A stretch of 27,862 nt of DNA from a virus (Duplodnaviria; Heunggongvirae; Uroviricota; Caudoviricetes): positions 1-27,862 of the IMG/VR virus record IMGVR_UViG_2561511241_000007; one strand, 5' to 3'. Shown one piece after another: positions 1-13,454 of the stretch. Numbering within the stretch: the stretch's first letter is position 1; every line of letters begins with the position of its first letter. The position numbers and the translations under genes are program-made. The notes beneath the pieces were generated by a model. The model ran no database searches. It had not been told where the DNA came from and saw nothing but the letters and a program-made list of their open reading frames with translations.

Positions 1-582
1 TTACCCTATAGGTGCTACTGGCCATTCAATATCCGGTGCAGTTGTTGTATTAACACGGTTCAGCAACACCCGATACTTCTTCCAGGCTTCCAGCAACGAG
101 ATTTCTTCCTCCGTTGCGATTTCCAGATCTACAGCATCCTGAAGTGGCGCAATATGCTCACTGGCTACCTGCATCAGGCTGTTTTTTGTTTCTTCTGCCT
201 CCCGAATCCGGAACAGTTTTTCTGCTTCCGTATCCTTCACCCAGGCTGTGCCGTTCCACTTCTGATATTCCCCTCCCGGCGACAACCAGGTAACATTTTC
301 CGGTAACGGACCGAGTTCAGAAATAAATAACGCGTCGCCGGAAGCCACGTCATAAACCGTTTTACCCCGATGGTCTTCAACGAGATGCCACGATGCCTCA
401 TCACTGTTGAAAACAGCCACGAAGCCTGCCGGAATATCTGGTGGTGCAATATCGGTACTGTTTGCTGGCAGACCTGTATGAGGCGGAATATATGCGTCAC
501 CTTCACCAATAAATTCATTAGTTCCGGCCAGCAGATTATAAATTTTTATGGTCCGTGCTTGTTCACTCATTCTGAATGCCAT
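1..582 (-). CDS. tfa: tail fiber assembly protein (lambda Tfa-like)
   Basis: Complete 193-aa ORF (ATG at 582, TAA at 1-3); translation matches lambda Tfa as recalled; start overlaps the stf stop (TAATG). Confidence 0.9.
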
Positions 583-1400
583 TATGCAAGCCTCACAATA
601 TAGTTAAATGCGATGTTTTTGACGGTGTTTTCCGCGTTACCCGCAGCGTTAACGGTGATGGTGTGTCCATGTGAGCCAATCGCAACCGAGTGCGTATGCG
701 CACCAATACCTACAGTATGTGCATGTGCGCCAGAACTTGCTGCAGTACCAGACAGCGAGTGGGTATGAGCACCTGCTGACTGTGTCTGAATACGTTGATA
801 ATACGATCTACTGGAAGAAGTCCCCGGGCTTACTTGATACTGTGAATCCTTGACATAAGTGAACCCACCGCCATCATAAAATGCTAACGCAGAACCGCCG
901 CCTCCTGGCCAACGAATACCATTACCATGAGTATGAGCACCGGCAGACCCCGTAGAGCCACTCAGACTGTGCGTATGCGCCCCGGTGTTATTCGTGGATT
1001 TAGTGCCGTAATCAAACGACGATGTGGTTTTCGTCCCCAAATCCGTACTGGATGCGCTGGCGCTGTGGGTGTGCGATTTAATGCCGTCCTGTTCCTGAGA
1101 CAATACGGCACGACCACTGGCAGGTTTGCCCTTAATCGTCCAGCCACGCATATCAGGGATCACGCCTGACGGATAAGCGGCTGCAAGTTTCGGGTAGGCA
1201 GATTTGTCAAAAGTCTGCCCCTGCATCAGGGCATAACCAGACGGAACGGTATCTGATGGCCACGGGATTGGTGCGCCGACTGGGTAGCTTTCTGGTGGAA
1301 GATTTTTCGAGGTATAAACTTCTGCCCAGCCTTCCTCAAAACCATAACCGTCTCTTGAAGAACGGTAGAACAGACCACCATTTCTGTAATGCGCCTTCAT
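582..1400 (-). CDS. stf: side tail fiber protein, C-terminal receptor-binding portion only (lambda Stf-like, truncated)
   Basis: Translation from GAPIPWPSD to the [11 protein letters not shown] end matches the lambda Stf C-terminus as recalled, including GAHTHS repeats; the N-terminal ~500 aa of a full Stf are absent; reading frame is open to 1448 but the first plausible start is MKAHYRN at 1400. Confidence 0.8.
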
Positions 1401-1596
1401 GACCGTTAATATTTTCCTGCTCAACAGAACACAGCGTGGTGACATCAATATCCTGCTTTTGTCCTGCGGTAAACTGCACCTCTTTGATTGTACAGCTCAG
1501 ACCAAGATAGCTGGCAGAATCCAGGGTTTCTGCTGTTACCGGTGCAGACGAAATCATAATTTTCGTCAGTTGCGAACGCTCAAAATTAGAGGACAT
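1336..1596 (-). CDS. hypothetical protein, possible N-terminal remnant of a deleted tail gene
   Basis: 87-aa ORF starting [10 protein letters not shown] with an AGGAGA Shine-Dalgarno 7 nt upstream; sits where a major tail protein is expected after the connector genes; overlaps the stf fragment out of frame by about 64 nt. Confidence 0.35.
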
Positions 1597-1610
1597 ACTC
1601 GTCTCCTGAA

Positions 1611-1640
1611 AATAAAAAACCCGCCAGCGGCGGGTGGGTA
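1611..1640 (-). terminator. rho-independent terminator (minus strand)
   Basis: Hairpin CCCGCC-AGCG-GCGGG followed on the minus strand by TTTTTTATTTT. Confidence 0.55.
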
Positions 1641-1655
1641 AAATCATTAACGACC

Positions 1656-2000
1656 TCAGGCTATTACCTGAAATTCAAGCGTGGCTCTGCTCAGACGGGA
1701 ATCAGGATCATAACCCTGAGTTTTAGAAATAACGGAGGGTGCAAGTTGCCTTACCGCATCAAGCGCCTGCTCACGGATATCATCTGCGTCATCAGGTACT
1801 GTTGCCCAGACATCGATCTGCACGGTAATTCTGGATTCAGCCTGACCATCAAGCACATCAGACGCAGTGTCAGACACCACAGAAAATACCAGCCATGGCG
1901 GAGATACCGCAGGCTTTCCCTCCGTCAGCGGGACCACATAAGGATAAACCTGTCCTCCGGCCAGTTGAGACAGCAGGGAATACAGTGTGGTCTCTCTCAT
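1656..2000 (-). CDS. tail completion / tail terminator-like protein (DUF3168-like)
   Basis: 114-aa ORF in the position and size class of HK97 gp11-type proteins; start overlaps the upstream gene. Confidence 0.55.
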   Translation of the reverse strand: MRETTLYSLLSQLAGGQVYPYVVPLTEGKPAVSPPWLVFSVVSDTASDVLDGQAESRITVQIDVWATVPDDADDIREQALDAVRQLAPSVISKTQGYDPDSRLSRATLEFQVIA

Positions 2001-2446
2001 TTACTTAAGACCTCATCAATAGCCTGATTCATTCGCTGTATGGCAATCTGTGCTGCCAGTTCCTCTGTCGTATCGAAAGCCGGGCGAATGAACGGATGCG
2101 CGGGCATGTTTATCGTTCCCAGCTCCACAAAGCGCCAGTAAAACGCATTTCGGGGATCACTGGCTTTCATGCTGTTATCACTGTTTCCGGTCCGCAGGTT
2201 CCGTCCACGAATGTGGACACCCGAGATAATTTCCCCCCGACGCTTTGAACGCTGAGTGAGAACAACCACATTTTTCTTCAGTTTCCCGGTTCGCTCCGGC
2301 GCACGTTCAACAACTGCATCCCGCATAACTTCAGCACCGGCACGGGTGGCATCGCGCAGTACCTTATTGTTTTCTGCCCTGCTGAGCGTCTCCAGATCCC
2401 GTGCAATATCCGCCAGACCTGAAAAATCAAGACTGAAATCCATCAC
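1997..2446 (-). CDS. HK97 gp10-family head-tail joining protein
   Basis: 149-aa ORF with the gp10-family character; translationally coupled to flanking connector genes. Confidence 0.7.
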   Translation of the reverse strand: MMDFSLDFSGLADIARDLETLSRAENNKVLRDATRAGAEVMRDAVVERAPERTGKLKKNVVVLTQRSKRRGEIISGVHIRGRNLRTGNSDNSMKASDPRNAFYWRFVELGTINMPAHPFIRPAFDTTEELAAQIAIQRMNQAIDEVLSK

Positions 2447-2781
2447 ACATTCCCCTTCTGAGAACAGAGTATCTCAAGCCGTGTGGCACGAGCATCCGGT
2501 ATCGGCGGACCGTCTATACTCAGAATCGCGCCTTTGAATGCACCAGTCAGCACTTTCAGACATGAAGTTGCTGTTACATCTCGCCGGAATCTCATCCAGA
2601 CCCTCACTGTAGCCTGAGCAGTTTCTGCGCCTCCGGATATTCTCTCCCTGCCACTGATCCCCTTAACTTCTGCCCATATGGTTGCCCCCTCCGTCATTGT
2701 TTCCACAGGGTGCCCTGACGGAGACCGAACGGTGGTGGCATTCAGAATAACCACACGATCACGTAATCTTCCTGCCTGCAT
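2443..2781 (-). CDS. head closure / head-tail adaptor protein
   Basis: 112-aa ORF between gp6-like and gp10-like genes, typical position and size. Confidence 0.65.
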   Translation of the reverse strand: MQAGRLRDRVVILNATTVRSPSGHPVETMTEGATIWAEVKGISGRERISGGAETAQATVRVWMRFRRDVTATSCLKVLTGAFKGAILSIDGPPIPDARATRLEILCSQKGNV

Positions 2782-2789
2782 GAATCCTC

Positions 2790-3095
2790 CTATGTTCCGG
2801 GATGAAATCGATACATCCGCAGTCCGGTATAGAAAAAATCAGGCACTGCATCCTGCATTTCCCTGTTCTCGTACCAGTAGCCAACCAGTTGCATAAGACG
2901 CAGTTTTATCAGAGGTGTTATTACAAGCCCGGTCGTATCCTGCTCAGAAACAGTTTCATCGTAAAGCGTCCGGTTTAAAAACTTTTCAGCCTCTTCCCTG
3001 GCAGCAGCCAGATACATCATAAGAAGAGAATTCTCCTGTTCATTGTCATCATCAATCCGGCACTGAACACGAAGCTCTTCCAGAGTGGGCATCAT
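2790..3095 (-). CDS. head-tail connector (gp6-like) protein
   Basis: 101-aa acidic ORF in the position typical of gp6-like connector proteins downstream of the capsid gene. Confidence 0.6.
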   Translation of the reverse strand: MMPTLEELRVQCRIDDDNEQENSLLMMYLAAAREEAEKFLNRTLYDETVSEQDTTGLVITPLIKLRLMQLVGYWYENREMQDAVPDFFYTGLRMYRFHPGT

Positions 3096-3106
3096 TTGGG
3101 CAACCT

Positions 3107-3295
3107 CTATGAATGCTGTTTTTTAGACTTATCAGCCCCCCGCGCAACAGGTGTTCTCTTATCAGAGACAATCCCAGCTGCAGTGGCAATTTCGCGTACC
3201 CGTTCGGGTAATTCTTTATCTTCATACTCACCGGCCCGAATAATCTCAACACGCATACCGTCCGGTGACCATTTCAGATCTTGTTTCAGGATCAT
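3107..3295 (-). CDS. hypothetical small protein
   Basis: 62-aa ORF filling the gap between the capsid gene and the connector gene; no recognisable motif. Confidence 0.3.
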   Translation of the reverse strand: MILKQDLKWSPDGMRVEIIRAGEYEDKELPERVREIATAAGIVSDKRTPVARGADKSKKQHS

Positions 3296-3345
3296 GATTC
3301 TTTCACCTGTCAGAACAGGGGCGCACTTCTGCGCCCCCTGAATGA

Positions 3346-4551
3346 TTACGCTGCTGCAATCTTCAGCAGTTTGATGGCCTGCGAATCGACCAGCATCCCG
3401 CCGGTGCGCTTGGTGGTATAAAAACCGACAAACGGTTTATTGGTGTACGGGTCACGCAGAATGCGGGTGCCGATACGGTCAACGATGGTGTAACCCCGTT
3501 TGAAGTTACCAAATGCAATGGCTTTCGCATCAGCGGCGATATCCGGCATCTGTTCGTTTTCAGCGATACCGTAACCCGCCAGAGAGGACGGCTGCCCCAG
3601 TTCCAGCCCCGGACGCCACAGATAGTTACCCTCGCTGTCTTTAAGCAGACGGATGGCAAACAGGCTGTTGTTGTTCATCATGAACTTCGCGCCAGTGCGG
3701 TGTGCCTTACGCAGCGTGTAAATCAGTTTGATAATGGCATCTGCGGTCACTGCCGTCGCTTCGCCGGATACAATATGCTGAAGTTTGCCGAACGCCCGGA
3801 CCTTGTCGGTTTCATCAGTGGACTCATACGCCAGGAACCCTTTCGGCTTCTTGGTACCATCGCCGGTGGTAAAGGCAATTTCTTCCTGTTCGGCAAATTC
3901 GGTTGCCAGCTCGCTGTTGATCCAGGCCTCCACGTTGAAGAAAGCATCATCCAGCATTTTCTGGGTGGCCTGCGGGTTACCGTAGATTTCCCCCATGAAA
4001 GGTTCAATCAGTCCCAGTTTTGAGGTGGCAGTCTGGGAGCGCGCGTCAGTCTCGCCAACCCATCCGGAAGCCGTGCCGCCCAGATTCACCAGTTTTTTGT
4101 AGTCGGAACCGCCAACGGTGATCACCGTGGCTTCCTGGCGCATCACCACTTCATCTTTCAGCAGATTGAGAATGTTGCGATCCAGTTCTTCCGGCACGGC
4201 ATAGCCGCCGTCTTCATCGGTGCCCACCTGTAATGCCTTACGCTCCAGATCGCGCAGACCATCTTCACGGCCTTTACGCAGGAAGCCCACAAACGCTTCT
4301 TTATGCTCGGTGGCCAGTTTATTTTGCGCACCACCTGCCGGACGTTTCAGCTCAAGCAGCTCTTTTTCAAGATCGCTTTTGAGATTTTCCAGCTCGCTGA
4401 GTTTTCCGTTCAGGGTTTCCACCTGCCCGGCAAGTTTGCCTTTTTCCTGCTCAATCGCCTCAACGCGCTTGTCGTTCTTTGCTTTGAAGTCGTCAAACTT
4501 CTGCTGCAGCTCCTGCGCGACCTGTTCGACATCTTTAATATCAACCGCCAT
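3346..4551 (-). CDS. major capsid protein, HK97 family
   Basis: 401-aa ORF with an N-terminal coiled-coil delta-domain-like region followed by an HK97-fold-like body; directly downstream of the prohead protease. Confidence 0.9.
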   Translation of the reverse strand: MAVDIKDVEQVAQELQQKFDDFKAKNDKRVEAIEQEKGKLAGQVETLNGKLSELENLKSDLEKELLELKRPAGGAQNKLATEHKEAFVGFLRKGREDGLRDLERKALQVGTDEDGGYAVPEELDRNILNLLKDEVVMRQEATVITVGGSDYKKLVNLGGTASGWVGETDARSQTATSKLGLIEPFMGEIYGNPQATQKMLDDAFFNVEAWINSELATEFAEQEEIAFTTGDGTKKPKGFLAYESTDETDKVRAFGKLQHIVSGEATAVTADAIIKLIYTLRKAHRTGAKFMMNNNSLFAIRLLKDSEGNYLWRPGLELGQPSSLAGYGIAENEQMPDIAADAKAIAFGNFKRGYTIVDRIGTRILRDPYTNKPFVGFYTTKRTGGMLVDSQAIKLLKIAAA

Positions 4552-4565
4552 CGTATTTCTCCTGA

Positions 4566-5252
4566 TTAGAAGTTCAGATTTTTCAGTGCATTCAGTGCAG
4601 AGCCCACATCCTCAGCGTCGCGCAGGGACAGTGCGCCATAGCCCCCGGCCATGAATGCTTTGGCCTGGGTACGGGAGAGTCCGACATCACGCAGGACTCT
4701 TTCGATTTTTTTCTGTTCGGGGATTTCCCCGCGGGCCAGTGCGTTCTTGACGTCGCTGATCCGCGCCTCGTCGTTAGACGGGAACGTCACCAGGCTGACT
4801 TCCCAGAGGTCGATTTCTTTCAGCAGAAAGGCTTCTTTGCTCCGGTCGTATTCCCAGTCTTTCAGGACGTACCCAATAGAAAGGCCGGTTAACGAACCGG
4901 CCTTCATGTGTGCATGTGCGCGTTTTGCGAGGGGATCATCATCAATAAGCAACCGTCCCCTGACGTAAAGCCCGACATCGTCTTCCTTCATTTCGGTGTA
5001 AACACCGATGGGTTCATCCATGCGGTGCTGCCAGAGCAGCGCAGGTAACGCTTTTCTGTCACTCCACGCCCGCAGGGAAGCAGCAAATGCCCCGGACATC
5101 ACCACATCATCGTGGCTGTCCTTTACACCAAAGACGGAGCCATACCCTTCAAACTCACCGGAGTCACTGACAGATTTCAGACTCAGCGGTACATCAAGAC
5201 GTTGTTTCGTCTGCATTGGCGTTATCCTTCTGCTTACCGGCTTTACTGCCAT
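4566..5252 (-). CDS. prohead protease, HK97 family
   Basis: 228-aa ORF between portal and capsid genes; alternative start at 5216 would reduce the overlap with portal. Confidence 0.8.
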   Translation of the reverse strand: MAVKPVSRRITPMQTKQRLDVPLSLKSVSDSGEFEGYGSVFGVKDSHDDVVMSGAFAASLRAWSDRKALPALLWQHRMDEPIGVYTEMKEDDVGLYVRGRLLIDDDPLAKRAHAHMKAGSLTGLSIGYVLKDWEYDRSKEAFLLKEIDLWEVSLVTFPSNDEARISDVKNALARGEIPEQKKIERVLRDVGLSRTQAKAFMAGGYGALSLRDAEDVGSALNALKNLNF

Positions 5253-6435
5253 CGGAGGGTTTCGTGGTCATGTTCATCGGGGTGAGATAGACATCACCAC
5301 CGGGACGCGGATTCATATCTTCCAGGTCGCGGCAGTCATTAGGAGAGTAAATTCCCCAGTTGATCCCGGTGGCGTAGGCTTCAAAACGGGACTTCATATC
5401 CCCGCGCAGTAACGCCCCGGCGTTAAATTTGGCGTAATAAACGCCCTGCTTACTTTTTCGTACCAGTCCGGTGTTGATCCGCTGCTCAATGCGGGTCAGA
5501 TACGGCACCAGTGAATAGTTGATAAATCCCAGCCCCAGCTCTTCGATATTGTTGAAGGTGGCGCGATCGGTGTTCTGCACCATGTGCAACGGCACCCGAA
5601 ACAGACGACAGATTTCTTCAAGCTGAAACTTGCGGGTTTCCAGGAACTGGCTGTCCTCGGCGTTCAGCGCCATCGACTTCCAGTCCAGCCCCATCTCAAG
5701 GATCATCGGGCGGTGAGCATTGCCAAGCCTGGTGTGACGCTCCTCAAAATCTTTCTTCAGGCGCTCGTAAGCCTGATCTGACAGCGTCTGCTCTGTACGC
5801 AACACACCGGACGTCACCGCACCATTGCTGAACAGTCTGGCCCCGTGCTCTTCGGTCGCTGCCGCCAGCGATATTGCCTCGCGGGCATAGGCGATGGGAT
5901 TCAGCCCCACCAGTCCGTCCAGCGTCAGCGTGCGCACATGCCAGATATCCTCCTGGCTCAGTACATCCGTGGAGCCGTCCGGGAATGTGACCTGATAGAC
6001 CGGCTCCCAGCTACTGTTAAGCTTCGGTACCACACAGCCAGGATCGACGGGCAGCAGTTCAGCCACTTCGCCAAATGCTTTCACTTTGTAGGCGTAAAAG
6101 TTTCCCCTCAGGCACAGACAGGTGACCACCAGCTCCCAGAACTCCTGCGGCGTCATATATCCATTGGGATGCGTGGAGATCAGCTTATGCAGACGTTCGC
6201 CGGTGGCTCTCTGTTTCAGGCTGCCGTTCAGGTGATACAGATTGCAGGGCAACATCCCGACCGACTCTGCCAGCACCCTGACGCAGGAAAAAACCGCCGT
6301 CAGTCGCATGGCCCGCTGGCTGCTGATCTGCTTTCCGGTATAGGTGTCGTATGACAGCCCGATAGCATCCGCCAGCTCTGCTGGCGTGGTCACCGGCGCG
6401 TCACTTTTTCGTTGAAATAATCCCGAAAAGAACAC
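5194..6435 (-). CDS. portal protein, HK97 family
   Basis: 413-aa ORF downstream of the large terminase, size and position typical of a portal. Confidence 0.85.
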   Translation of the reverse strand: MFFSGLFQRKSDAPVTTPAELADAIGLSYDTYTGKQISSQRAMRLTAVFSCVRVLAESVGMLPCNLYHLNGSLKQRATGERLHKLISTHPNGYMTPQEFWELVVTCLCLRGNFYAYKVKAFGEVAELLPVDPGCVVPKLNSSWEPVYQVTFPDGSTDVLSQEDIWHVRTLTLDGLVGLNPIAYAREAISLAAATEEHGARLFSNGAVTSGVLRTEQTLSDQAYERLKKDFEERHTRLGNAHRPMILEMGLDWKSMALNAEDSQFLETRKFQLEEICRLFRVPLHMVQNTDRATFNNIEELGLGFINYSLVPYLTRIEQRINTGLVRKSKQGVYYAKFNAGALLRGDMKSRFEAYATGINWGIYSPNDCRDLEDMNPRPGGDVYLTPMNMTTKPSDGSKAGKQKDNANADETTS

Positions 6436-6617
6436 TATTTACCTCCGCCGACAGACGGCTGTGTACGGTCGAGATATCGCGCCACCAGCCACGACCAGAA
6501 CAGGCACAGCGCCCCGGCAACAACAAAACCCGCCGGGGGATAAATCAGCCAGGCACCATACGCCAGCAAAAGCGCACCCAGCACGCCCACCAGTGGCGCG
6601 AGAATTATCAGAAACAT
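6435..6617 (-). CDS. small membrane protein between terminase and portal
   Basis: 60-aa ORF that is almost entirely hydrophobic (two predicted TM helices). Confidence 0.45.
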
Positions 6618-6628
6618 AATGACCTCGG

Positions 6629-8386
6629 TTAAAGCGAGCGGATGCCCACGCTGACCAGATGTTCAGACAGATCCGGCTCCGGTTCACCACCATTGACCAG
6701 CATCCGGCTCATTGCTGTAAACATCGCAACAGGGCCGTCGATTTTGGCTTCCAGCGTGGATTTATTCGGGAAGATATTGTCGTTTTTGTCCGGTTTTACC
6801 GTAACGTTAGACATCATCCAGTTCATGACCGGATGATTGCTGTGATGGAAACGTCCGGCATAGACCAGTGATTCCGTTTCCTTCATGGCCTCTGACAGAT
6901 TGCGAACCGTCTGCGGAACCTCCACCAGCGGTATCCCTTCTTCAGCCAGTGCTAGGCTGAACTGCATCGCGCTCCACGGGTCAAATCCCAGTTCCCTGAG
7001 GTTTTCACCACCAATCCATTCCAGTAAGTCACTTTTTATCTGAGCATGATCGATAACATCACCATCCGTCAGAATCAGCTTATCCATCTCCGCCCACTTC
7101 CGGTAAAGTTCTGCCTGCTGCCGCGAGCATCGTTCCAGCCGTCCTTCCGGGAGCCAGAATTTAAAATCGGCATGAACATGCCCGTTATCCGTTCGCCAGA
7201 GTTTTGCCGCCGCACAGATATCAATCTTATGAGCAAGGTCAACGCCGACCCACATGGGATACGTTTTCAGCTCATGTCGCGGGGCAATGTATTCGCACTT
7301 CTCCCACTTAATCATGTCCATCCAGGCAGACTCTGCTGTTACCCACACATTCATGTGTTTGGTAAAAAAATTCACCCGCGCAGAGACCTGTTCTTTCGCT
7401 TTTTTCGCCAGACGACGCAGATCATCCCAGCGTTTACAGATGCCCAGGCCAGGATTCGCTTTCTGCCAGACCGTTTCATCAAACGGATCATCTCCCTCAT
7501 CGAGGGTGTAAATAATCGCAAAGTAGGAGTCGTCTTTTACAGCGCCCTCCACGTCGCTGTTATAGCCACGCAATACCTTGATGGCATAATCACGCTGCTC
7601 GTAACAAATCCCTTCCTTGTTAAACCCTGCCGTGGTGATACCAAATAAAAGGGACTGCAGACGGGCACCGGTTGCCGTTTCCAGAACGTCCCACACGTCA
7701 CGGGTTTTATGTGCATGCAGCTCATCAATAATGGCGCAGTGGATGTTCAGACCATCCAGGTTGTTTGCATCCGAAGAAAGCGGTTCAAATTTTGATGCGC
7801 TCTGCTCCTGGTAAATCGCCAGCTTGTTGAAATCAAACAACCGCCCGAGTGTCGACCGGGCTTTTCTGACCATATTTTTGGCGTCTTCAAACACGATTCT
7901 GGCCTGGTCACGCGTGGTTGCGGCTGAATACACCTCAGCACCGCCTTCACCATCTGCCCCCGTCATATACAGACCGATACCCGATGACAGGGTTGATTTT
8001 GCGTTTTTACGGGCAACTTCGTTGTATGCTGTCCGGAACCGGCGCACCATCACCGGGCGCCCGCTGCCATCGCTGCGCATGACAACTTCCCCGGTCTCTT
8101 CATTGACCAGCGGAATGACAAAACCAAAAATATTAATGAGGATAAATACATGCCAGTCCATCAACTCAATAGGCTGGCCTGCCAGCGCCCCTTTTACATG
8201 AGGCACAAATTTGTAGAAATTCAGGATGTGCTGCGCACGTGGTTCACTGAAATAAATCCCCCGCTCTTCGCCGTACTTTAGATCATCAAGAAAACGCTGG
8301 CAGGCCAGGCGGACAAATTCGCCAGCAACAATTTCTCCTGCAACAACACGTTCGGCGTAGCGGATCCCGTCAGCCACTTTTGCCAT
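6629..8386 (-). CDS. terminase large subunit
   Basis: 585-aa ORF with an N-terminal ATPase region and C-terminal nuclease region; start overlaps the small-subunit stop. Confidence 0.9.
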
Positions 8387-9605: not shown

Positions 9606-9989
9606 TCAGCGTTTCAACTGAAAGTGAGGCCCGTCTTTCAGTGTTTTCCAGTCCCCGCCCCATTCGATGGCAGTTCCCAGCTCTGCGGCAGCCTGCTTAA
9701 ATGCCTGCGCTATTTTCTCGTACAGAGGCCAGTCCCATGACACCTGGCTGCCAACCCAGGCAACAACATCCACCGCATCACCGGTCAGGTGGCGGCTGTT
9801 CATGGTCTGGCTTTTCCCTTCCGCGACCAGCTGTTTCTGGCGTTCTTTCGTGCGCAGCCCTTCCGTAATACCGAAATCAACCTCCGTCAGCTCCAGCGCA
9901 CGGCGAACGACAGCAACCAGCTGTGGTTTAACGCCCTCCAGATTCTTTTCGCTGCGACGACTAAATCTGAATTTACCCGACATATTCAC
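9606..9989 (-). CDS. endolysin, M15-family peptidase (L-alanyl-D-glutamate peptidase-like)
   Basis: 127-aa ORF sharing the VKP..L...VRRALEL...DF.I..G.RT...HLTGDA.D pattern with the T5-type endolysin as recalled. Confidence 0.8.
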   Translation of the reverse strand: MNMSGKFRFSRRSEKNLEGVKPQLVAVVRRALELTEVDFGITEGLRTKERQKQLVAEGKSQTMNSRHLTGDAVDVVAWVGSQVSWDWPLYEKIAQAFKQAAAELGTAIEWGGDWKTLKDGPHFQLKR

Positions 9990-10261
9990 CTCAACAATGG
10001 AAAGATTTTTGTGACGTTCCCGCGCGCGCGTATCACCAGCACGCAGAACAGCAGATTAAAAAACACTTCAGGCCAGCCCGTTGCTAACGGGCGACCACAC
10101 AGATAGCTGAGGGGCGCAAAGGCATACAGCAGCATCAGCAGCCAGGCCAGCCATGACATCAGCGGTTTATGTCTGGAATCACGGCGACGATAAAAAAAGA
10201 GCGCCAGCACGATAACCGTGCATAACGCCACATTCAGCAATCCGGGAAGGTTACTTAACAT
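9986..10261 (-). CDS. lysis-cassette membrane protein (holin partner or antiholin candidate)
   Basis: 91-aa ORF from ATG 10261 with several hydrophobic segments; overlaps the holin stop and the endolysin start. Confidence 0.45.
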   Translation of the reverse strand: MLSNLPGLLNVALCTVIVLALFFYRRRDSRHKPLMSWLAWLLMLLYAFAPLSYLCGRPLATGWPEVFFNLLFCVLVIRARGNVTKIFPLLR

Positions 10262-10643
10262 TGCCGCCTCCTCCACCCCGCAGGCGGGAGAACATACCGG
10301 ACACCAGCGATGCAATATCCTGCTGGTGGATGAACGAGAGAATCTTCACCGACACCACTGACACCAGCACTGCACACAGTGCGTCGACGGGTGCACCGTC
10401 AAACCCTGTATGCTTTACCAGCCAGGATGCCAGAACCTCTGCGCCCAGCACGCCGATAATGAACGACACCAGAAAATGCGCCGCCACACGCCAGGCTGAA
10501 AGTGCCTGCGGCATCGTTGCCACAAATAACGCCCCGGCGAACGCACCAAACACAATCCCGAAATCCGTTCCGGTAAACAGCCCGAATACTGTCGCTCCAC
10601 CGAGCGCCGCAGCCGTGCCGGAACCGGATAAGGGTTCAGACAT
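10251..10643 (-). CDS. putative holin
   Basis: 130-aa ORF with glycine-rich TM helices and a charged C-terminus; first gene of the lysis cluster. Confidence 0.6.
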   Translation of the reverse strand: MSEPLSGSGTAAALGGATVFGLFTGTDFGIVFGAFAGALFVATMPQALSAWRVAAHFLVSFIIGVLGAEVLASWLVKHTGFDGAPVDALCAVLVSVVSVKILSFIHQQDIASLVSGMFSRLRGGGGGNVK

Positions 10644-10733
10644 ACTTTTTCTCCTGTAAATAAAAAAGGGCCACCAGCGACCCGTAAAAACAACACCCCG
10701 TCAAAGGCACCCGCAGATGCCTTTTGTGTGGTG

Positions 10734-10886
10734 TTATTCAGATTTGCGCAGTAAAGGCAGGAGGACGACCAGCGCCATCGCCACCAGCACACCATCTGCC
10801 AGCACCGACATCAGTCGTCCGGTGAAATCCACCACCACTACCAGAAACAGCAGGATGGCAGCCAGTACAGGGCGCGCACTTTTCAC
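10734..10886 (-). CDS. small hydrophobic protein (GTG start overlapping the TerB stop)
   Basis: About 50 aa, almost entirely hydrophobic; GTGA start/stop overlap with the upstream TerB-like gene suggests translational coupling. Confidence 0.3.
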   Translation of the reverse strand: MKSARPVLAAILLFLVVVVDFTGRLMSVLADGVLVAMALVVLLPLLRKSE

Positions 10887-11308
10887 AGATACTGCTCCAG
10901 TGGAAGCTGAAGCGCCTGTGCAATTTTCTTGAGTTGCGCTTCTTCCTCCGGAGCAATGCCGTCCTGGTCTGCGATATCCAGACACAGGCACAGCACATTC
11001 ACTGCGTCATCGGTACCGGCAACATCAGCCAGCTGACGAAGGGCTTCGGCATTGGCAGAACGCGGTGACGCTTCATAACGGGCGCGGATATTTGCACTCA
11101 TTTGTGCAATCTCACCGGAGAACGGCGCAAAGGCAGGAAGCGCTGCAATGGTTTTCTCCAGCACTGCGATTTCTTTCGCATCACAGGTGCCGTCAGCAAA
11201 AGCAATGGAATACGCACCCCAGACGGTCGCCTCCACCGCATCGCGGTTCTCCATTTTCTTTACTTCAGTAATGGCCTTGCGGGTTTTCTTTTTGAAAATA
11301 CCAAACAT
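10883..11308 (-). CDS. TerB-domain protein (tellurite-resistance TerB family-like)
   Basis: 141-aa ORF with AAGGA Shine-Dalgarno; composition and pattern match TerB-like proteins. Confidence 0.6.
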   Translation of the reverse strand: MFGIFKKKTRKAITEVKKMENRDAVEATVWGAYSIAFADGTCDAKEIAVLEKTIAALPAFAPFSGEIAQMSANIRARYEASPRSANAEALRQLADVAGTDDAVNVLCLCLDIADQDGIAPEEEAQLKKIAQALQLPLEQYL

Positions 11309-11565
11309 CGTGACTTTTCCTTTTAGTGGGTGAGCCTGCGCCTGGGGGTGACCAGCCCACAGAGAAAGTCACACTGACCATCCCGTAAGCTCACCCCTGA
11401 AAGGCTCTGTGGTTTTTGATGTGCGCCGGGCGTGACGCAAAGAAATGAAATAAGACTTACCTGAAATTAAGGTTAATCTGAGGATTTAAACCATTTTTAA
11501 TGCTTAGTAATATAAATACGTCTCTCTGGAGGAGAGAGATGCTTATTCTTCTTCATGGACTTTGT

Positions 11566-11600
11566 CCCGCGGCTTTAATCCGACAGCCGCGCCCTTTTTT
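11566..11600 (+). terminator. rho-independent terminator (plus strand)
   Basis: Stem CGCGGC / GCCGCG followed by CCCTTTTTT. Confidence 0.5.
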
Positions 11601-11624
11601 CGCCAATATAAACCTGGTTGAACT

Positions 11625-11650
11625 CATACAAAAAGCTCGCCGAAGCGAGC
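11625..11650 (-). terminator. rho-independent terminator (minus strand)
   Basis: Stem GCTCGC-CGAA-GCGAGC followed on the minus strand by TTTTTGT. Confidence 0.55.
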
Positions 11651-11682
11651 CTGTTAAAAGTATATTTACCGTTACAAATGGA

Positions 11683-11765
11683 CCGTCACCGGGGACTCGA
11701 ACCCCGCACCACAAAACAACAATACGTGTTATGCACTCTTACCCGATGAGTTAGTGACGGTTTTG
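11683..11765 (-). other. tRNA-like element (possible pseudo-tRNA)
   Basis: Minus-strand sequence has a perfect 7-bp acceptor stem (CCGTCAC/GTGACGG), D-stem, canonical T-arm (CGGGG-TTCGAGT-CCCCG) and a 3' TCCA, but an aberrant ~30-nt anticodon/variable region. Confidence 0.4.
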
Positions 11766-11812
11766 TGTTATGTGGGAATCCAGCCTGACGACAGAATTAC
11801 TGGAACACCTTG

Positions 11813-11845
11813 CAAAAAAAAGCCAGCCACCAGAGACTGGCTGGC
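11813..11845 (-). terminator. rho-independent terminator (minus strand)
   Basis: Stem GCCAGCC / GGCTGGC with a 10-nt loop, followed on the minus strand by TTTTTTTT. Confidence 0.65.
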
Positions 11846-12016
11846 AAATTACAAAGTTTAAATGATTCATCATACAATCGTCGTTACAGGGGAATCCTGC
11901 GGTGCAGCAAGATACAAAAATGTAAGCAAACCAACAATAAGCAAGCACAGCATATTCGGAATTAGTTATAATTTTAACGATGCAGTGCTTATTCAGCATG
12001 CAATTCTGCAAATTAC

Positions 12017-12043
12017 CAAAAAAAACCGCCTGCTAAGGCGGTG
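12017..12043 (-). terminator. rho-independent terminator (minus strand), downstream of the tRNA array
   Basis: Stem ACCGCC / GGCGGT followed on the minus strand by TTTTTTTT. Confidence 0.65.
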
Positions 12044-12403
12044 GTCAAATCAGTAAGTGCTGAAGAGTATTATTATAATACAAGTGAGGTGTCGGGTGCC
12101 TCCCGAAATACCTGACATTCCATCAGATACTGTAGTTTCCCGGCTAAACTACTTAAACCACCCCGCACATGGAGTTCACCTCATTTTGTGATGTTAACAA
12201 CATCGGGATAGTGCATAATCAGCCCCTGCCAGGAAATATCAAAAATCCCACCAATAATGCACTATTCCGATAGCGTCAAAAAACACAGCACCGAAATCAT
12301 AACTGGTCTCCGTTATAATTCGGGAGAGCGATAAAGGATATACGAGACCTTTCCCCGCGAAAAAAACGCCAGTGCTGAAAAACCTATACCTCATTTGTTT
12401 TTC

Positions 12404-12478
<75 letters not shown>

Positions 12479-12481
12479 ATA

Positions 12482-12559
<78 letters not shown>

Positions 12560-12560
12560 C

Positions 12561-12637
12561 TGGACCGCCACCGAGGACTCGAACCTCGCACACTCAACTT
12601 AAAGGGTTAACACTCTTTCTTGGTGAACTGGTGGCGG
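12561..12637 (-). tRNA. tRNA-like gene, anticodon uncertain (UUU read in a loop with C33), possibly degenerate
   Basis: Perfect acceptor stem and canonical T-arm (CGAGG-TTCGAGT-CCTCG); D-arm lacks canonical features and position 33 is C. Confidence 0.45.
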
Positions 12638-12638
12638 T

Positions 12639-12714
12639 TGGTGGCCCTTGCTGGATTCGAACCAGCGACCTGGCGATTATGAGTCGCTCGCTCTCACCAC
12701 TGAGCTAAAGGGCC
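12639..12714 (-). tRNA. tRNA-Ile2 / Met (anticodon CAU), ileX/ileZ-like
   Basis: Canonical 76-nt cloverleaf with perfect acceptor and T stems; closely resembles E. coli ileX as recalled. Confidence 0.85.
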
Positions 12715-12740: not shown

Positions 12741-13454
12741 TCAAAAATCAAGCCCTTGCATAGATACATATCTGTCTGGCGGGAAGCCATAATAGCGGTG
12801 AAATACAGAGATAAAGTAGGATCTACTTGAATAACCGCATTTTTCTGCTACAGCCTGTCCATATCCATGCCGGGAGCATAACATATTTACAGCAACCCGC
12901 ATCCGTTCCTCAAGTAACAAATTACTGAACCTGAGACCTTCATCCTTGAGTTTTTTCTTTAACAAGCTCTCACTCATATGCAACTGTAGAGCAATCGCAC
13001 CAAGCGTCCAGCTTGCTGATATATCTGTTTGAATTATCGCTCTGACTTTGGCACTTATACTGGATAAACATCCACTTAAAAATAATAACATCCGTTCATC
13101 TGATTCAAACAACGACAGGCAGGCCATCATAAGAAACATGTCCGTGGTCTCTCCGGAAAGTCTCTGGCTGGTAATTAAAGCCACAGCCAACGCAGGATTG
13201 TTGGGTTCCTGCGACAAGTAAAGCGGAATGTCAGTCAGAGGAGTTCTTGTCAGCTTATGCTGACTTTCCAGATATTGACTTACTATAGAATGGTTTATAT
13301 CGACAATTTTAACTTTGCCATAATGCATAAGGAAAAGCTCCCTGATGCATTTGGTGGCCAAAACAACTGAGCCGGGCTTAAGTGACAACGTATCCTTTTC
13401 AAGAAAAATATTAATTGGGGAGCAAACCATGATAACTGAACAGACAACAGCCAT
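12741..13454 (-). CDS. AraC-family transcriptional regulator, AppY-like
   Basis: 237-aa ORF, AT-rich; C-terminal AraC HTH; N-terminus and overall pattern resemble DLP12 AppY as recalled. Confidence 0.75.
   Translation of the reverse strand: MAVVCSVIMVCSPINIFLEKDTLSLKPGSVVLATKCIRELFLMHYGKVKIVDINHSIVSQYLESQHKLTRTPLTDIPLYLSQEPNNPALAVALITSQRLSGETTDMFLMMACLSLFESDERMLLFLSGCLSSISAKVRAIIQTDISASWTLGAIALQLHMSESLLKKKLKDEGLRFSNLLLEERMRVAVNMLCSRHGYGQAVAEKCGYSSRSYFISVFHRYYGFPPDRYVSMQGLDF

Follow-up and report, generated by a model that had tools for sequence, protein, structure and literature searches.

In the stretch of virus-assigned DNA analysed here (the window, 27,862 nucleotides (nt), IMGVR_UViG_2561511241_000007), a phage cassette lying wholly on the minus strand brings together four elements: a structured leader RNA (11441..11306), the gene tciA encoding a TerB-family protein of 141 amino acids (aa) (10883..11308), the overlapping gene tciB encoding a 50-aa peptide of the DUF3927 family (10734..10886), and two successive terminator-like hairpins that separate the pair from a holin gene. 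The chromosome of the porcine Escherichia coli ETEC1749 matches the window at 99.9% identity, and in it the NCBI Prokaryotic Genome Annotation Pipeline (PGAP)/RefSeq labels of the two genes are ‘tellurite resistance TerB family protein’ and ‘DUF3927 family protein’, in a prophage with a P27-family terminase. The host element is a phiP27-like lambdoid prophage and the pair lies within its Q-dependent late operon, directly 5′ of the holin-holin-M15 endolysin genes.

A preliminary description of this DNA had announced a 141-aa TerB-like gene at 10883-11308 and a hydrophobic open reading frame (ORF) of about 50 aa joined to it by a GTGA overlap, between a tRNA array and the holin. Both genes are where it placed them, on the minus strand between the tRNA genes (12404-12714) and two holin genes (10643..10251 and 10315..9986), and TciA passes the TerB hidden Markov model search that it proposed. 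That account covered the gene pair and missed both the identity with phage P1 tciA/tciB and the leader RNA, which lies just outside the interval it described.

TciA is a TerB-family protein

Sequence comparison establishes both genes as real and as homologues of P1 tciA and tciB. By its profile matches TciA is a full-length TerB-family protein, sharing with P1 TciA 85.1% protein identity over 141 aa (78.4% for the DNA). The Pfam TerB model (PF05099) recognizes it at 31.3 bits for a cut-off of 24.4, partially (aa 11-57 on profile positions 60-106), and the match to PHROG 632 ‘tellurite resistance’ spans the whole protein (E 2.6e-64). Searching the PDB with the single TciA sequence did not find 2JXU, the solved Klebsiella pneumoniae TerB, and returned only spurious PNPase matches; a profile was therefore needed. 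It was built from 54 relatives taken from an exhaustive search of 1.84 billion cluster representatives, and matched 2JXU at E 6.4e-24 (positions 9-142 versus 15-149). The AlphaFold model has six helices (predicted local distance difference test 88), its nearest structures being 2h5n and 2ou3 (‘tellurite resistance protein of COG3793’); modelled in this way, TciA is all-helical with a TerB-like fold.

The protein has a basic N-terminus; in the wider family alignment, hardly any variation affects its two ADGxxxxxE motifs (aa 38-46 and 113-122) or D23. This family is small, with 248 cluster representatives at E<=1e-3 among the 1.84 billion and 97 phage records, nearly all of phage or prophage origin. 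NCBIfam contains no match for TciA or TciB, distant relatives touching the DjlA model weakly. The ratio of non-synonymous to synonymous substitution rates (dN/dS) of tciA, for the window against 14 homologous loci, is 0.03-0.09. A Pfam scan of the cassette neighbours gave holins, endolysin, HNH and an AraC-like gene, and the RefSeq annotation of the 99.9% identical 29-kb region holds no TerC, TerD, TerE or TerZ gene.

TciB is a coupled small membrane peptide

The GTG start of tciB overlaps the TGA stop of tciA (GTGA), with a GGAG 8 nt upstream. Its product matches Pfam DUF3927 (52.1 bits versus 25) and PHROG 1470 ‘TciB-like’ (E 5e-23). The two hydrophobic helices appear as two Kyte-Doolittle peaks with DFTGR between them and basic residues at each terminus; DFT(G/S)+ and ADG motifs are conserved, and acidic residues in or near the membrane segments are invariant. 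Since two hydrophobic segments are framed by basic ends, the peptide is suggested to form an N-in/C-in helical hairpin. No holin family of Pfam or PHROG matches TciB, whereas the neighbouring genes do match such families. The possibility that TciB is a fragment of TerC was rejected, as hhalign detected no relationship between the TciB family and phage TerC. A natural TciA-TciB fusion found among the homologues (P0051) is probably a frameshift artefact.

Co-occurrence of the two genes in other prophages, which the preliminary description had put forward as a check, is clear: a coupled ORF of 49-55 aa and of the same pattern follows the tciA homologue at 18 of 18 genomic loci, where the start/stop junction remains overlapping or abutting (GTGA, TAATG, TGATG) despite differing start codon types. 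With dN/dS of 0.24-0.60 for tciB over the same comparison, the low ratios and this constant retention of the small ORF indicate that the pair is real and not a chance association. In more distant phages the small ORF follows the TerB gene in five cases out of six, virulent phages among them. The TerB-TciB pair is found in the Schitoviridae phage SP-076, lambdoid JLK-2012, P7, Erwinia and Salmonella jumbo phages, Pseudomonas phage ZY21 and Pantoea phage LIET2; SP-076, the jumbo phages and ZY21 are obligately lytic. In Vibrio phage vB_VpaP-MS02 (L030 378-1926), the sole such case examined, TerC stands directly upstream of TerB and there is no TciB-like ORF.

At megablast level, 164 of 5426 complete E. 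coli genomes (~3%) carry at least 80% of the pair, and P1-like plasmids account for 165 further places. Where a chromosomal E. coli prophage carries the pair, one and the same lysis cassette almost always follows it directly, regardless of Q, terminase and upstream cargo. As a pair of genes, it is an already known and widely annotated phage module, of low novelty by itself; our literature search on tciA/tciB and DUF3927 found no functional study.

Some records of these homologues carry questionable names. The host labels of L003, L005, L011, L020 and L021 are doubtful, the ‘Actinobacillus phage vB_Apl-pPE4’ has 93-98% identity to E. coli prophage DNA in this region, and near-identical enterobacterial tciA occurs on contigs labelled as a Bacillota metagenome-assembled genome, Pseudomonas lundensis, Acinetobacter and Kocuria.

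The tciA leader is a conserved pseudoknotted RNA

The 135 nt 5′ of tciA are better conserved than the tciA coding sequence, and the leader is almost identical before the tciA of JLK-2012, though that protein is only 42% identical. Across 134 model positions, all parts being on the minus strand, the leader comprises the P0 hairpin (11438..11423), a strand a CCACAGAG (11412..11405), the 5′ strand of helix P1, or anti-Shine-Dalgarno strand, CCUUUCAG (11404..11397), helix b (11396..11387 with 11337..11328), helix c (11384..11374 with 11355..11345), a local hairpin d (11381..11365), the strand a′ CUCUGUGG (11364..11357), and the 3′ strand of P1, CUAAAAGG (11326..11319), which contains the Shine-Dalgarno sequence and precedes the tciA AUG (11308..11306).

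In 73 distinct sequences, aligned by fitting to the covariance model, positions of P0, b and c are paired at 89.3%, versus 30-52% when their partners are slid, and 25 of the 26 nested pairs in these helices vary on both sides. The covariation score is 0.469 versus 0.196 in shuffles, none of the 500 shuffles being as high. RNAalifold independently recovers P0, b, c and the closing helix P1. In P1, the pairing of CCUUUCAG with the Shine-Dalgarno strand CUAAAAGG is kept in nearly all copies, compensatory variants included, and the centroid that RNAfold gives for the window sequence contains it.

Strand a, the 8 nt directly 5′ of the anti-Shine-Dalgarno, is complementary to 7-8 nt at the 3′ end of the helix c loop (a′). 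This complementarity persists in 19 distinct sequence combinations, for example CCACAGAG/CUCUGUGG, CCGUAGAG/CUCUACGG, CCAAAGA/UCUUUGG, CUCAGAA/UUCUGAG and CGAGAG/CUCUCG. An initial unrestricted search for it was noisy, its swap control reaching the cognate mean in 18.5% of cases, and a position-restricted test was therefore adopted: cognate strands then pair over 6.85 bp on average, versus 4.81 for swapped partners and 4.24 for shuffles. Since a lies 5′ of b and a′ inside c, their pairing constitutes a pseudoknot. The leader folds into P0, P1, b, c and the pseudoknot a-a′, a structure supported by covariation, and an internal loop displays a conserved unpaired stretch, CUGNGCGNCA. In its structure and its expression platform, it has what is expected of a riboswitch-like cis-regulatory RNA, the effect on translation being a prediction.

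Leaders of the same class precede other accessory genes

A covariance model of the leader (R1) gives the window copy 156.7 bits and, with filters off, detects no second copy in the window. Scanning viral contigs for the pattern gave at least 120 loci, with a TerB-like ORF of one of two subfamilies behind nearly every one, and R1 added diverged copies before the terB genes of Erwinia and Salmonella jumbo phages. Paralogous leaders detected with R1 precede genes for KilA-N (with or without P63C), P22_AR_N, Rha, ANT/KilAC, AntA/B and HNH_3 proteins (L003 3796-3931(-), L007 6480-6596(+), L019 5135-5268(+), L040 13783-13922(+), L032 7090-7226(+) and ~90 more, L157-L231); they usually lie a few kb downstream of the tciA copy within one phage. 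Of the 5426 complete E. coli genomes, 876 contain the Ant-type leader, the median copy number being 3 and the highest 10. A T-run stands directly before the element in 54 of 73 distinct upstream flanks, so that the usual unit is terminator, leader, gene.

PGAP annotates no RNA at the leader sites. Searched against Rfam 15 (4227 families), positions 11306-11441 gave no match, either within a 6-kb query at E<=1 or within a 201-nt query at E<=10, and six other leader copies gave none. No description of this RNA was found in literature searches that were limited, so that it may be described elsewhere. A 2026 preprint places PasA between a sialate esterase gene and the holin and presents terminator-bearing Hfq small RNAs, with no matching sequence printed; going by that description, and not by sequence, the leader is judged to be a different RNA from PasA/PasC. 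The leader looks new: an apparently undescribed RNA, well supported as a structured element.

Transcription signals around the cassette

A compound stem-loop (10688..10739, minus strand, RNAfold) overlaps and follows the tciB stop codon and ends in a GUUGUUUUU run. Its inner hairpin (10724..10703), with a 9-bp stem and a UGCG loop on the mRNA strand within the longer stem 10739..10688, is the one that had been reported at about 10704-10723; the whole structure is nearly invariant in phiP27 and pPE4. Immediately 5′ of the holin Shine-Dalgarno, a consensus scan finds a hairpin resembling an intrinsic terminator, GGGUCGCUGGUGGCCC followed by UUUUUUAUUU (10658..10683, minus strand), with the hairpin proper at 10683..10668 and then six U. 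This second hairpin is kept in phiP27 and pPE4, which have a C-G pair in place of the U.G present here. Both are predicted, from consensus or thermodynamics, to be terminator-like, and as such would isolate the pair from the holin, as had been supposed for the first of them.

Upstream of the cassette, a terminator-like hairpin lies at 11633..11652 (minus strand), and the consensus scan gives another terminator-like site on the coding strand at 11845-11822 (minus). At most related loci the 11652-11633 hairpin directly abuts the leader RNA, whereas here a ~190-nt AT-rich insert (11442-11632) separates them. This insert has two small palindromes; it is shared with E. coli SE11 and absent from most related loci. 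A simple consensus scan of 10200-12000 finds no sigma-70-like promoter. This lack of a promoter-like site, the upstream terminators, the position of the P1 pair in the ban operon and the existence of lytic-phage carriers together point to lytic growth as the time of expression. We infer that tciAB expression is most likely linked to lytic growth and not autonomous in the lysogen, the promoter scan being crude.

The slot of tciAB carries stx2e in phiP27

Phage phiP27 carries stx2eAB at the exact slot of tciAB, between the tRNA genes and the same holin genes. It has neither leader RNA, nor tciA, nor about the first 18 codons of tciB; homology with the window restarts in tciB near codon 19, shows a 1-nt deletion, and from there extends across the two hairpins and into the holin gene. 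What phiP27 keeps of tciB, between stxB2e and the holin (L002 5125-5230), is thus a 3′ remnant with a frameshift. As the homology break falls inside tciB, the toxin cassette took the place of the leader, of tciA and of the 5′ portion of tciB. ORF L27, annotated in phiP27 on the opposite strand over this remnant, is probably spurious.

The preliminary description had likened the locus to the place where lambdoid phages carry stx or bor. The comparison with stx holds to the position; bor is a poor analogy, as lambda carries it on the downstream side of the lysis genes.

Other features of the window

Downstream of tciB, on the minus strand, Pfam and PHROG identify a Phage_holin_8 gene (10643..10251), a Phage_holin_3_7 gene (10315..9986) and the M15 endolysin (9989..9606); further on, the ORF list and family matches give an Rz-like ORF and an HNH endonuclease. 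Upstream of the cassette are the tRNA array (12404-12714), an AraC-family gene and the antiterminator Q gene. The AraC-family regulator (237 aa; HTH_AraC, HTH_18; 12741-13454) stands in the late region with Q on one side and the tRNA genes on the other. It constitutes a further cargo, of a kind known as prophage-encoded regulators of pathogenic E. coli.

ARAGORN reports an 82-nt ‘tRNA-Val(aac)’ at 11679-11760, a call made neither by the Rfam tRNA model nor by PGAP. The segment resembles a tRNA 3′ fragment (T-arm and acceptor end), and other phages have a complete tRNA-Gly at the matching site, followed by the same terminator. Proximity to tRNA genes is recurrent: terB-like genes lie within at most a few hundred bases of them in unrelated phages, namely this prophage, P1/P7, JLK-2012, Erwinia and Salmonella jumbo phages and Pseudomonas ZY21 (window 12404-12714, L001, L026-L029, L151-L153). 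Between the tRNA array and the strong terminator 11845-11822, a weak STnc100-like match (12014-12208, minus strand; 27.3 bits versus a gathering score of 47) may correspond to a prophage small RNA of the PasD/STnc100 type.

Positions 1-8386 of the window cover a separate integrative element, which has entered the large-terminase gene of the prophage, and the fragment of that gene left at 7358-8386(-) (‘incomplete’ in PGAP). The genes of the element include a tyrosine integrase (5963-7375(-)), HTH regulators, BRO-N, an Icd-like gene, a DUF927 primase and SSB, and in the matching genome it runs on into HK97-type capsid, protease and portal genes. The element could represent a satellite, or a second phage, that disables the host prophage.

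Discussion

We propose, with a probability of about 0.6, that the leader, tciA, tciB and the tandem terminator-like hairpins form a four-part cassette of the late operon, gated at the level of translation, in which TciB would be the membrane partner of the TerB protein and which would act during lytic growth. The cassette would be transcribed together with the late genes by Q-modified RNA polymerase resistant to terminators. Because its Shine-Dalgarno is sequestered in P1, translation of tciA would be off by default, until refolding of the leader upon a signal frees it. Strand a abuts the P1 strand, and for this reason the pseudoknot a-a′ and P1 are probably alternative states, a-a′ either competing with P1 or stabilising it; in the pseudoknot topology, the anti-Shine-Dalgarno would be the connecting loop. 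Thanks to the GTGA overlap, TciB could be made in step with TciA. It would span the inner membrane with its N- and C-termini on the cytoplasmic side, as partner or anchor of an amphitropic TerB protein, in a role comparable to that of TerC. Together they may act on the inner membrane or the cation balance of the infected cell. The output could be protection (against superinfection or pore-forming colicins, as depolarising insults), exclusion or membrane sensing.

A partnership of TciB with TciA at the membrane is consistent, by analogy, with several observations made on TerB proteins. They are described as membrane-associated or amphitropic and as forming a unit with TerC, E. coli DjlA is a natural case of a TerB-like domain tethered to the membrane, and phage MS02 has a TerC next to its TerB.

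Several points weigh against this proposal. The topology of TciB is drawn from hydropathy and charge only. A promoter that is weak or not of the sigma-70 type could escape a simple scan, and the 190-nt insert 11442-11632 is one place where this might happen. For helices b and c, the count of covarying pairs comes from sequences aligned to the model itself, a procedure biased towards the structure. Finally, the leader is absent at many tciAB loci (P1, P7, SP-076, ZY21 and several genomic loci), which makes it an optional, modular regulatory cassette and not a part intrinsic to TerB function.

Among the other explanations, the one that survives best, though we consider it unlikely, is by analogy an exclusion or abortive system in which TciA would be a membrane sensor of the TerB type and TciB a small membrane-damaging effector. 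The preliminary description had pointed to the association of TerB domains with phage defence, and rightly: they occur in the Bunzi, Shango and Dionysus systems (Dionysus in a 2025 preprint). These are validated systems, Dionysus pairing a TerB-like protein with membrane proteins, and TciB, a conserved peptide with two transmembrane segments and invariant acidic residues in or near the membrane, could fit such a scheme, as could the presence of the same leader class before antirepressor-type genes, which are involved in phage-phage conflict. The literature also cites the R478 ter operons as conferring phage inhibition and colicin resistance. On the other hand, no model of PADLOC-DB v2, a library with Bunzi and Shango and without Dionysus, matches TciA or TciB at E<=1, a partner of 50 aa is far below the size of known pore-forming effectors, and the pair is carried by virulent and jumbo phages.

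Another explanation concerns the leader, which could be a self-cleaving or processing element, with a nested fold like that of the hepatitis delta virus ribozyme cutting the late polycistronic RNA 5′ of strand a, or else a site bound by a protein of the phage or the host. The strand order a, b/c, hairpin, a′, c′/b′ does correspond to a nested pseudoknot, the element typically comes right after a terminator between late genes, several copies per phage precede unrelated genes, and the unpaired CUGNGCGNCA of the internal loop is conserved. We nevertheless judge this improbable: no ribozyme family of Rfam matches, the P0 hairpin is conserved upstream of the would-be cleavage site, and the pairing of the Shine-Dalgarno is invariant, which speaks for translational control.

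Still less probable is a lysogenic-conversion moron, the label first given to this locus, by which the prophage would express resistance to tellurite, metals or stress. The name of the TerB family and the passed Pfam model invite this idea, and the slot shared with stx2e, the hairpins insulating the pair from the holin and its carriage by 164 E. coli genomes agree with it. It is opposed by the lack of a promoter-like site, by the upstream terminators, by the Shine-Dalgarno sequestered in the leader and by the repressor-controlled operon in which P1 keeps its pair. The retention of the small ORF even in virulent phages speaks for a role in lytic growth rather than for a classical moron, as does the presence of the whole pair in obligately lytic ones. 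Moreover, resistance by ter operons requires TerC and TerD-type proteins according to the discussion in one study (PMC12054061), and TerC, TerD, TerE and TerZ are all missing within 29 kb. We infer that the cassette is not a tellurite-resistance determinant.

Small holins typically have the size class of TciB, two transmembrane segments and a charged C-terminus, and the E. coli prophage pair almost always precedes this lysis cassette, but an accessory of lysis timing, with TciB as an antiholin or holin-like peptide and TciA as modulator of the adjacent Phage_holin_8/holin_3_7 pair, has just as little chance of being correct: the pair is not beside lysis genes in P1/P7, SP-076, Erwinia and Salmonella jumbo phages, ZY21 and LIET2, TciB matches no holin family, and phiP27 lyses without the pair, which stx2e has replaced there.

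The locus bears on three questions. The first is the long-unclear role of TerB domains, which are also found in ter operons, DjlA and the Bunzi, Shango and Dionysus systems. A TerB protein tied to a peptide with two transmembrane segments across temperate, virulent and jumbo phages, with one phage having TerC instead, offers a minimal two-protein system to address it. The second is the origin of the phiP27 toxin locus, stx2e having been acquired by replacement of this very cassette with a junction inside tciB. The third is the leader itself, which appears to be a widespread structured element of E. coli prophages, before antirepressor-type genes as well as TerB, reaching 10 copies in a pathogenic E. 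coli genome and extending to Erwinia and Salmonella jumbo phages. That it represents an undescribed class of pseudoknotted cis-regulatory RNA of enterobacterial phages, gating a regulon of late accessory genes (TerB/TciA, KilA-N, Rha, P22-type and AntA/B antirepressors, HNH), is put forward tentatively, at slightly less than even odds. Such a class could be a riboswitch-like translational switch, possibly a ribozyme or a protein operator. If it is real, late accessory genes of Stx-type prophages would share a common translational switch, a new layer of prophage regulation, and TciAB and the antirepressor-type proteins would be made only upon a common signal during infection.

Comparison with known systems

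The leader recalls translational riboswitches of the SAM-II and preQ1-II types in its compact pseudoknot fold, in the use of the Shine-Dalgarno as 3′ strand of the closing helix and in the conserved unpaired nucleotides at junctions. It differs from them by the lack of an Rfam match and by the genes that it precedes, which are regulatory or accessory phage genes and not metabolic ones.

TciA and the TerB of terZABCDE operons (2JXU) are of equal length class, correspond to the same domain end to end and share a helical fold. There, the partners of TerB are TerC (~340 aa) and TerD/E/Z, whereas the putative partner of TciA is a 50-aa peptide. With Bunzi, Shango and Dionysus, tciAB has in common a TerB-like domain and membrane-associated components, for which a role in membrane surveillance has been proposed in those systems; unlike them, it has no helicase, ATPase or pore-forming partner, and is encoded by phages, virulent ones included.

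The closest relative is the tciA-tciB(-tciC) module of P1 (P1_gp074-076, NC_005856, annotation of Lobocka et al. 2004), situated between tRNA genes inside the C1-repressed ban operon and non-essential by CRISPR interference (PMC10695390). As here, the DUF3927 peptide is joined to TciA by an overlapping stop and start, tRNA genes are nearby and expression is tied to lytic development, the function being assigned in P1 ‘by homology’ only. P1 possesses tciC, whereas here the two hairpins occupy the 90-nt gap that separates tciB from the holin gene, a gap that contains no ORF; in P1 and P7, tciA is not preceded by a structured leader and belongs to the ban operon instead of a lambdoid late operon. 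In the stx2e cassette of phiP27, finally, the cargo is another one and the leader and tciA are lost, but the slot is the same, and the downstream hairpins and the start of the holin remain 88% identical.

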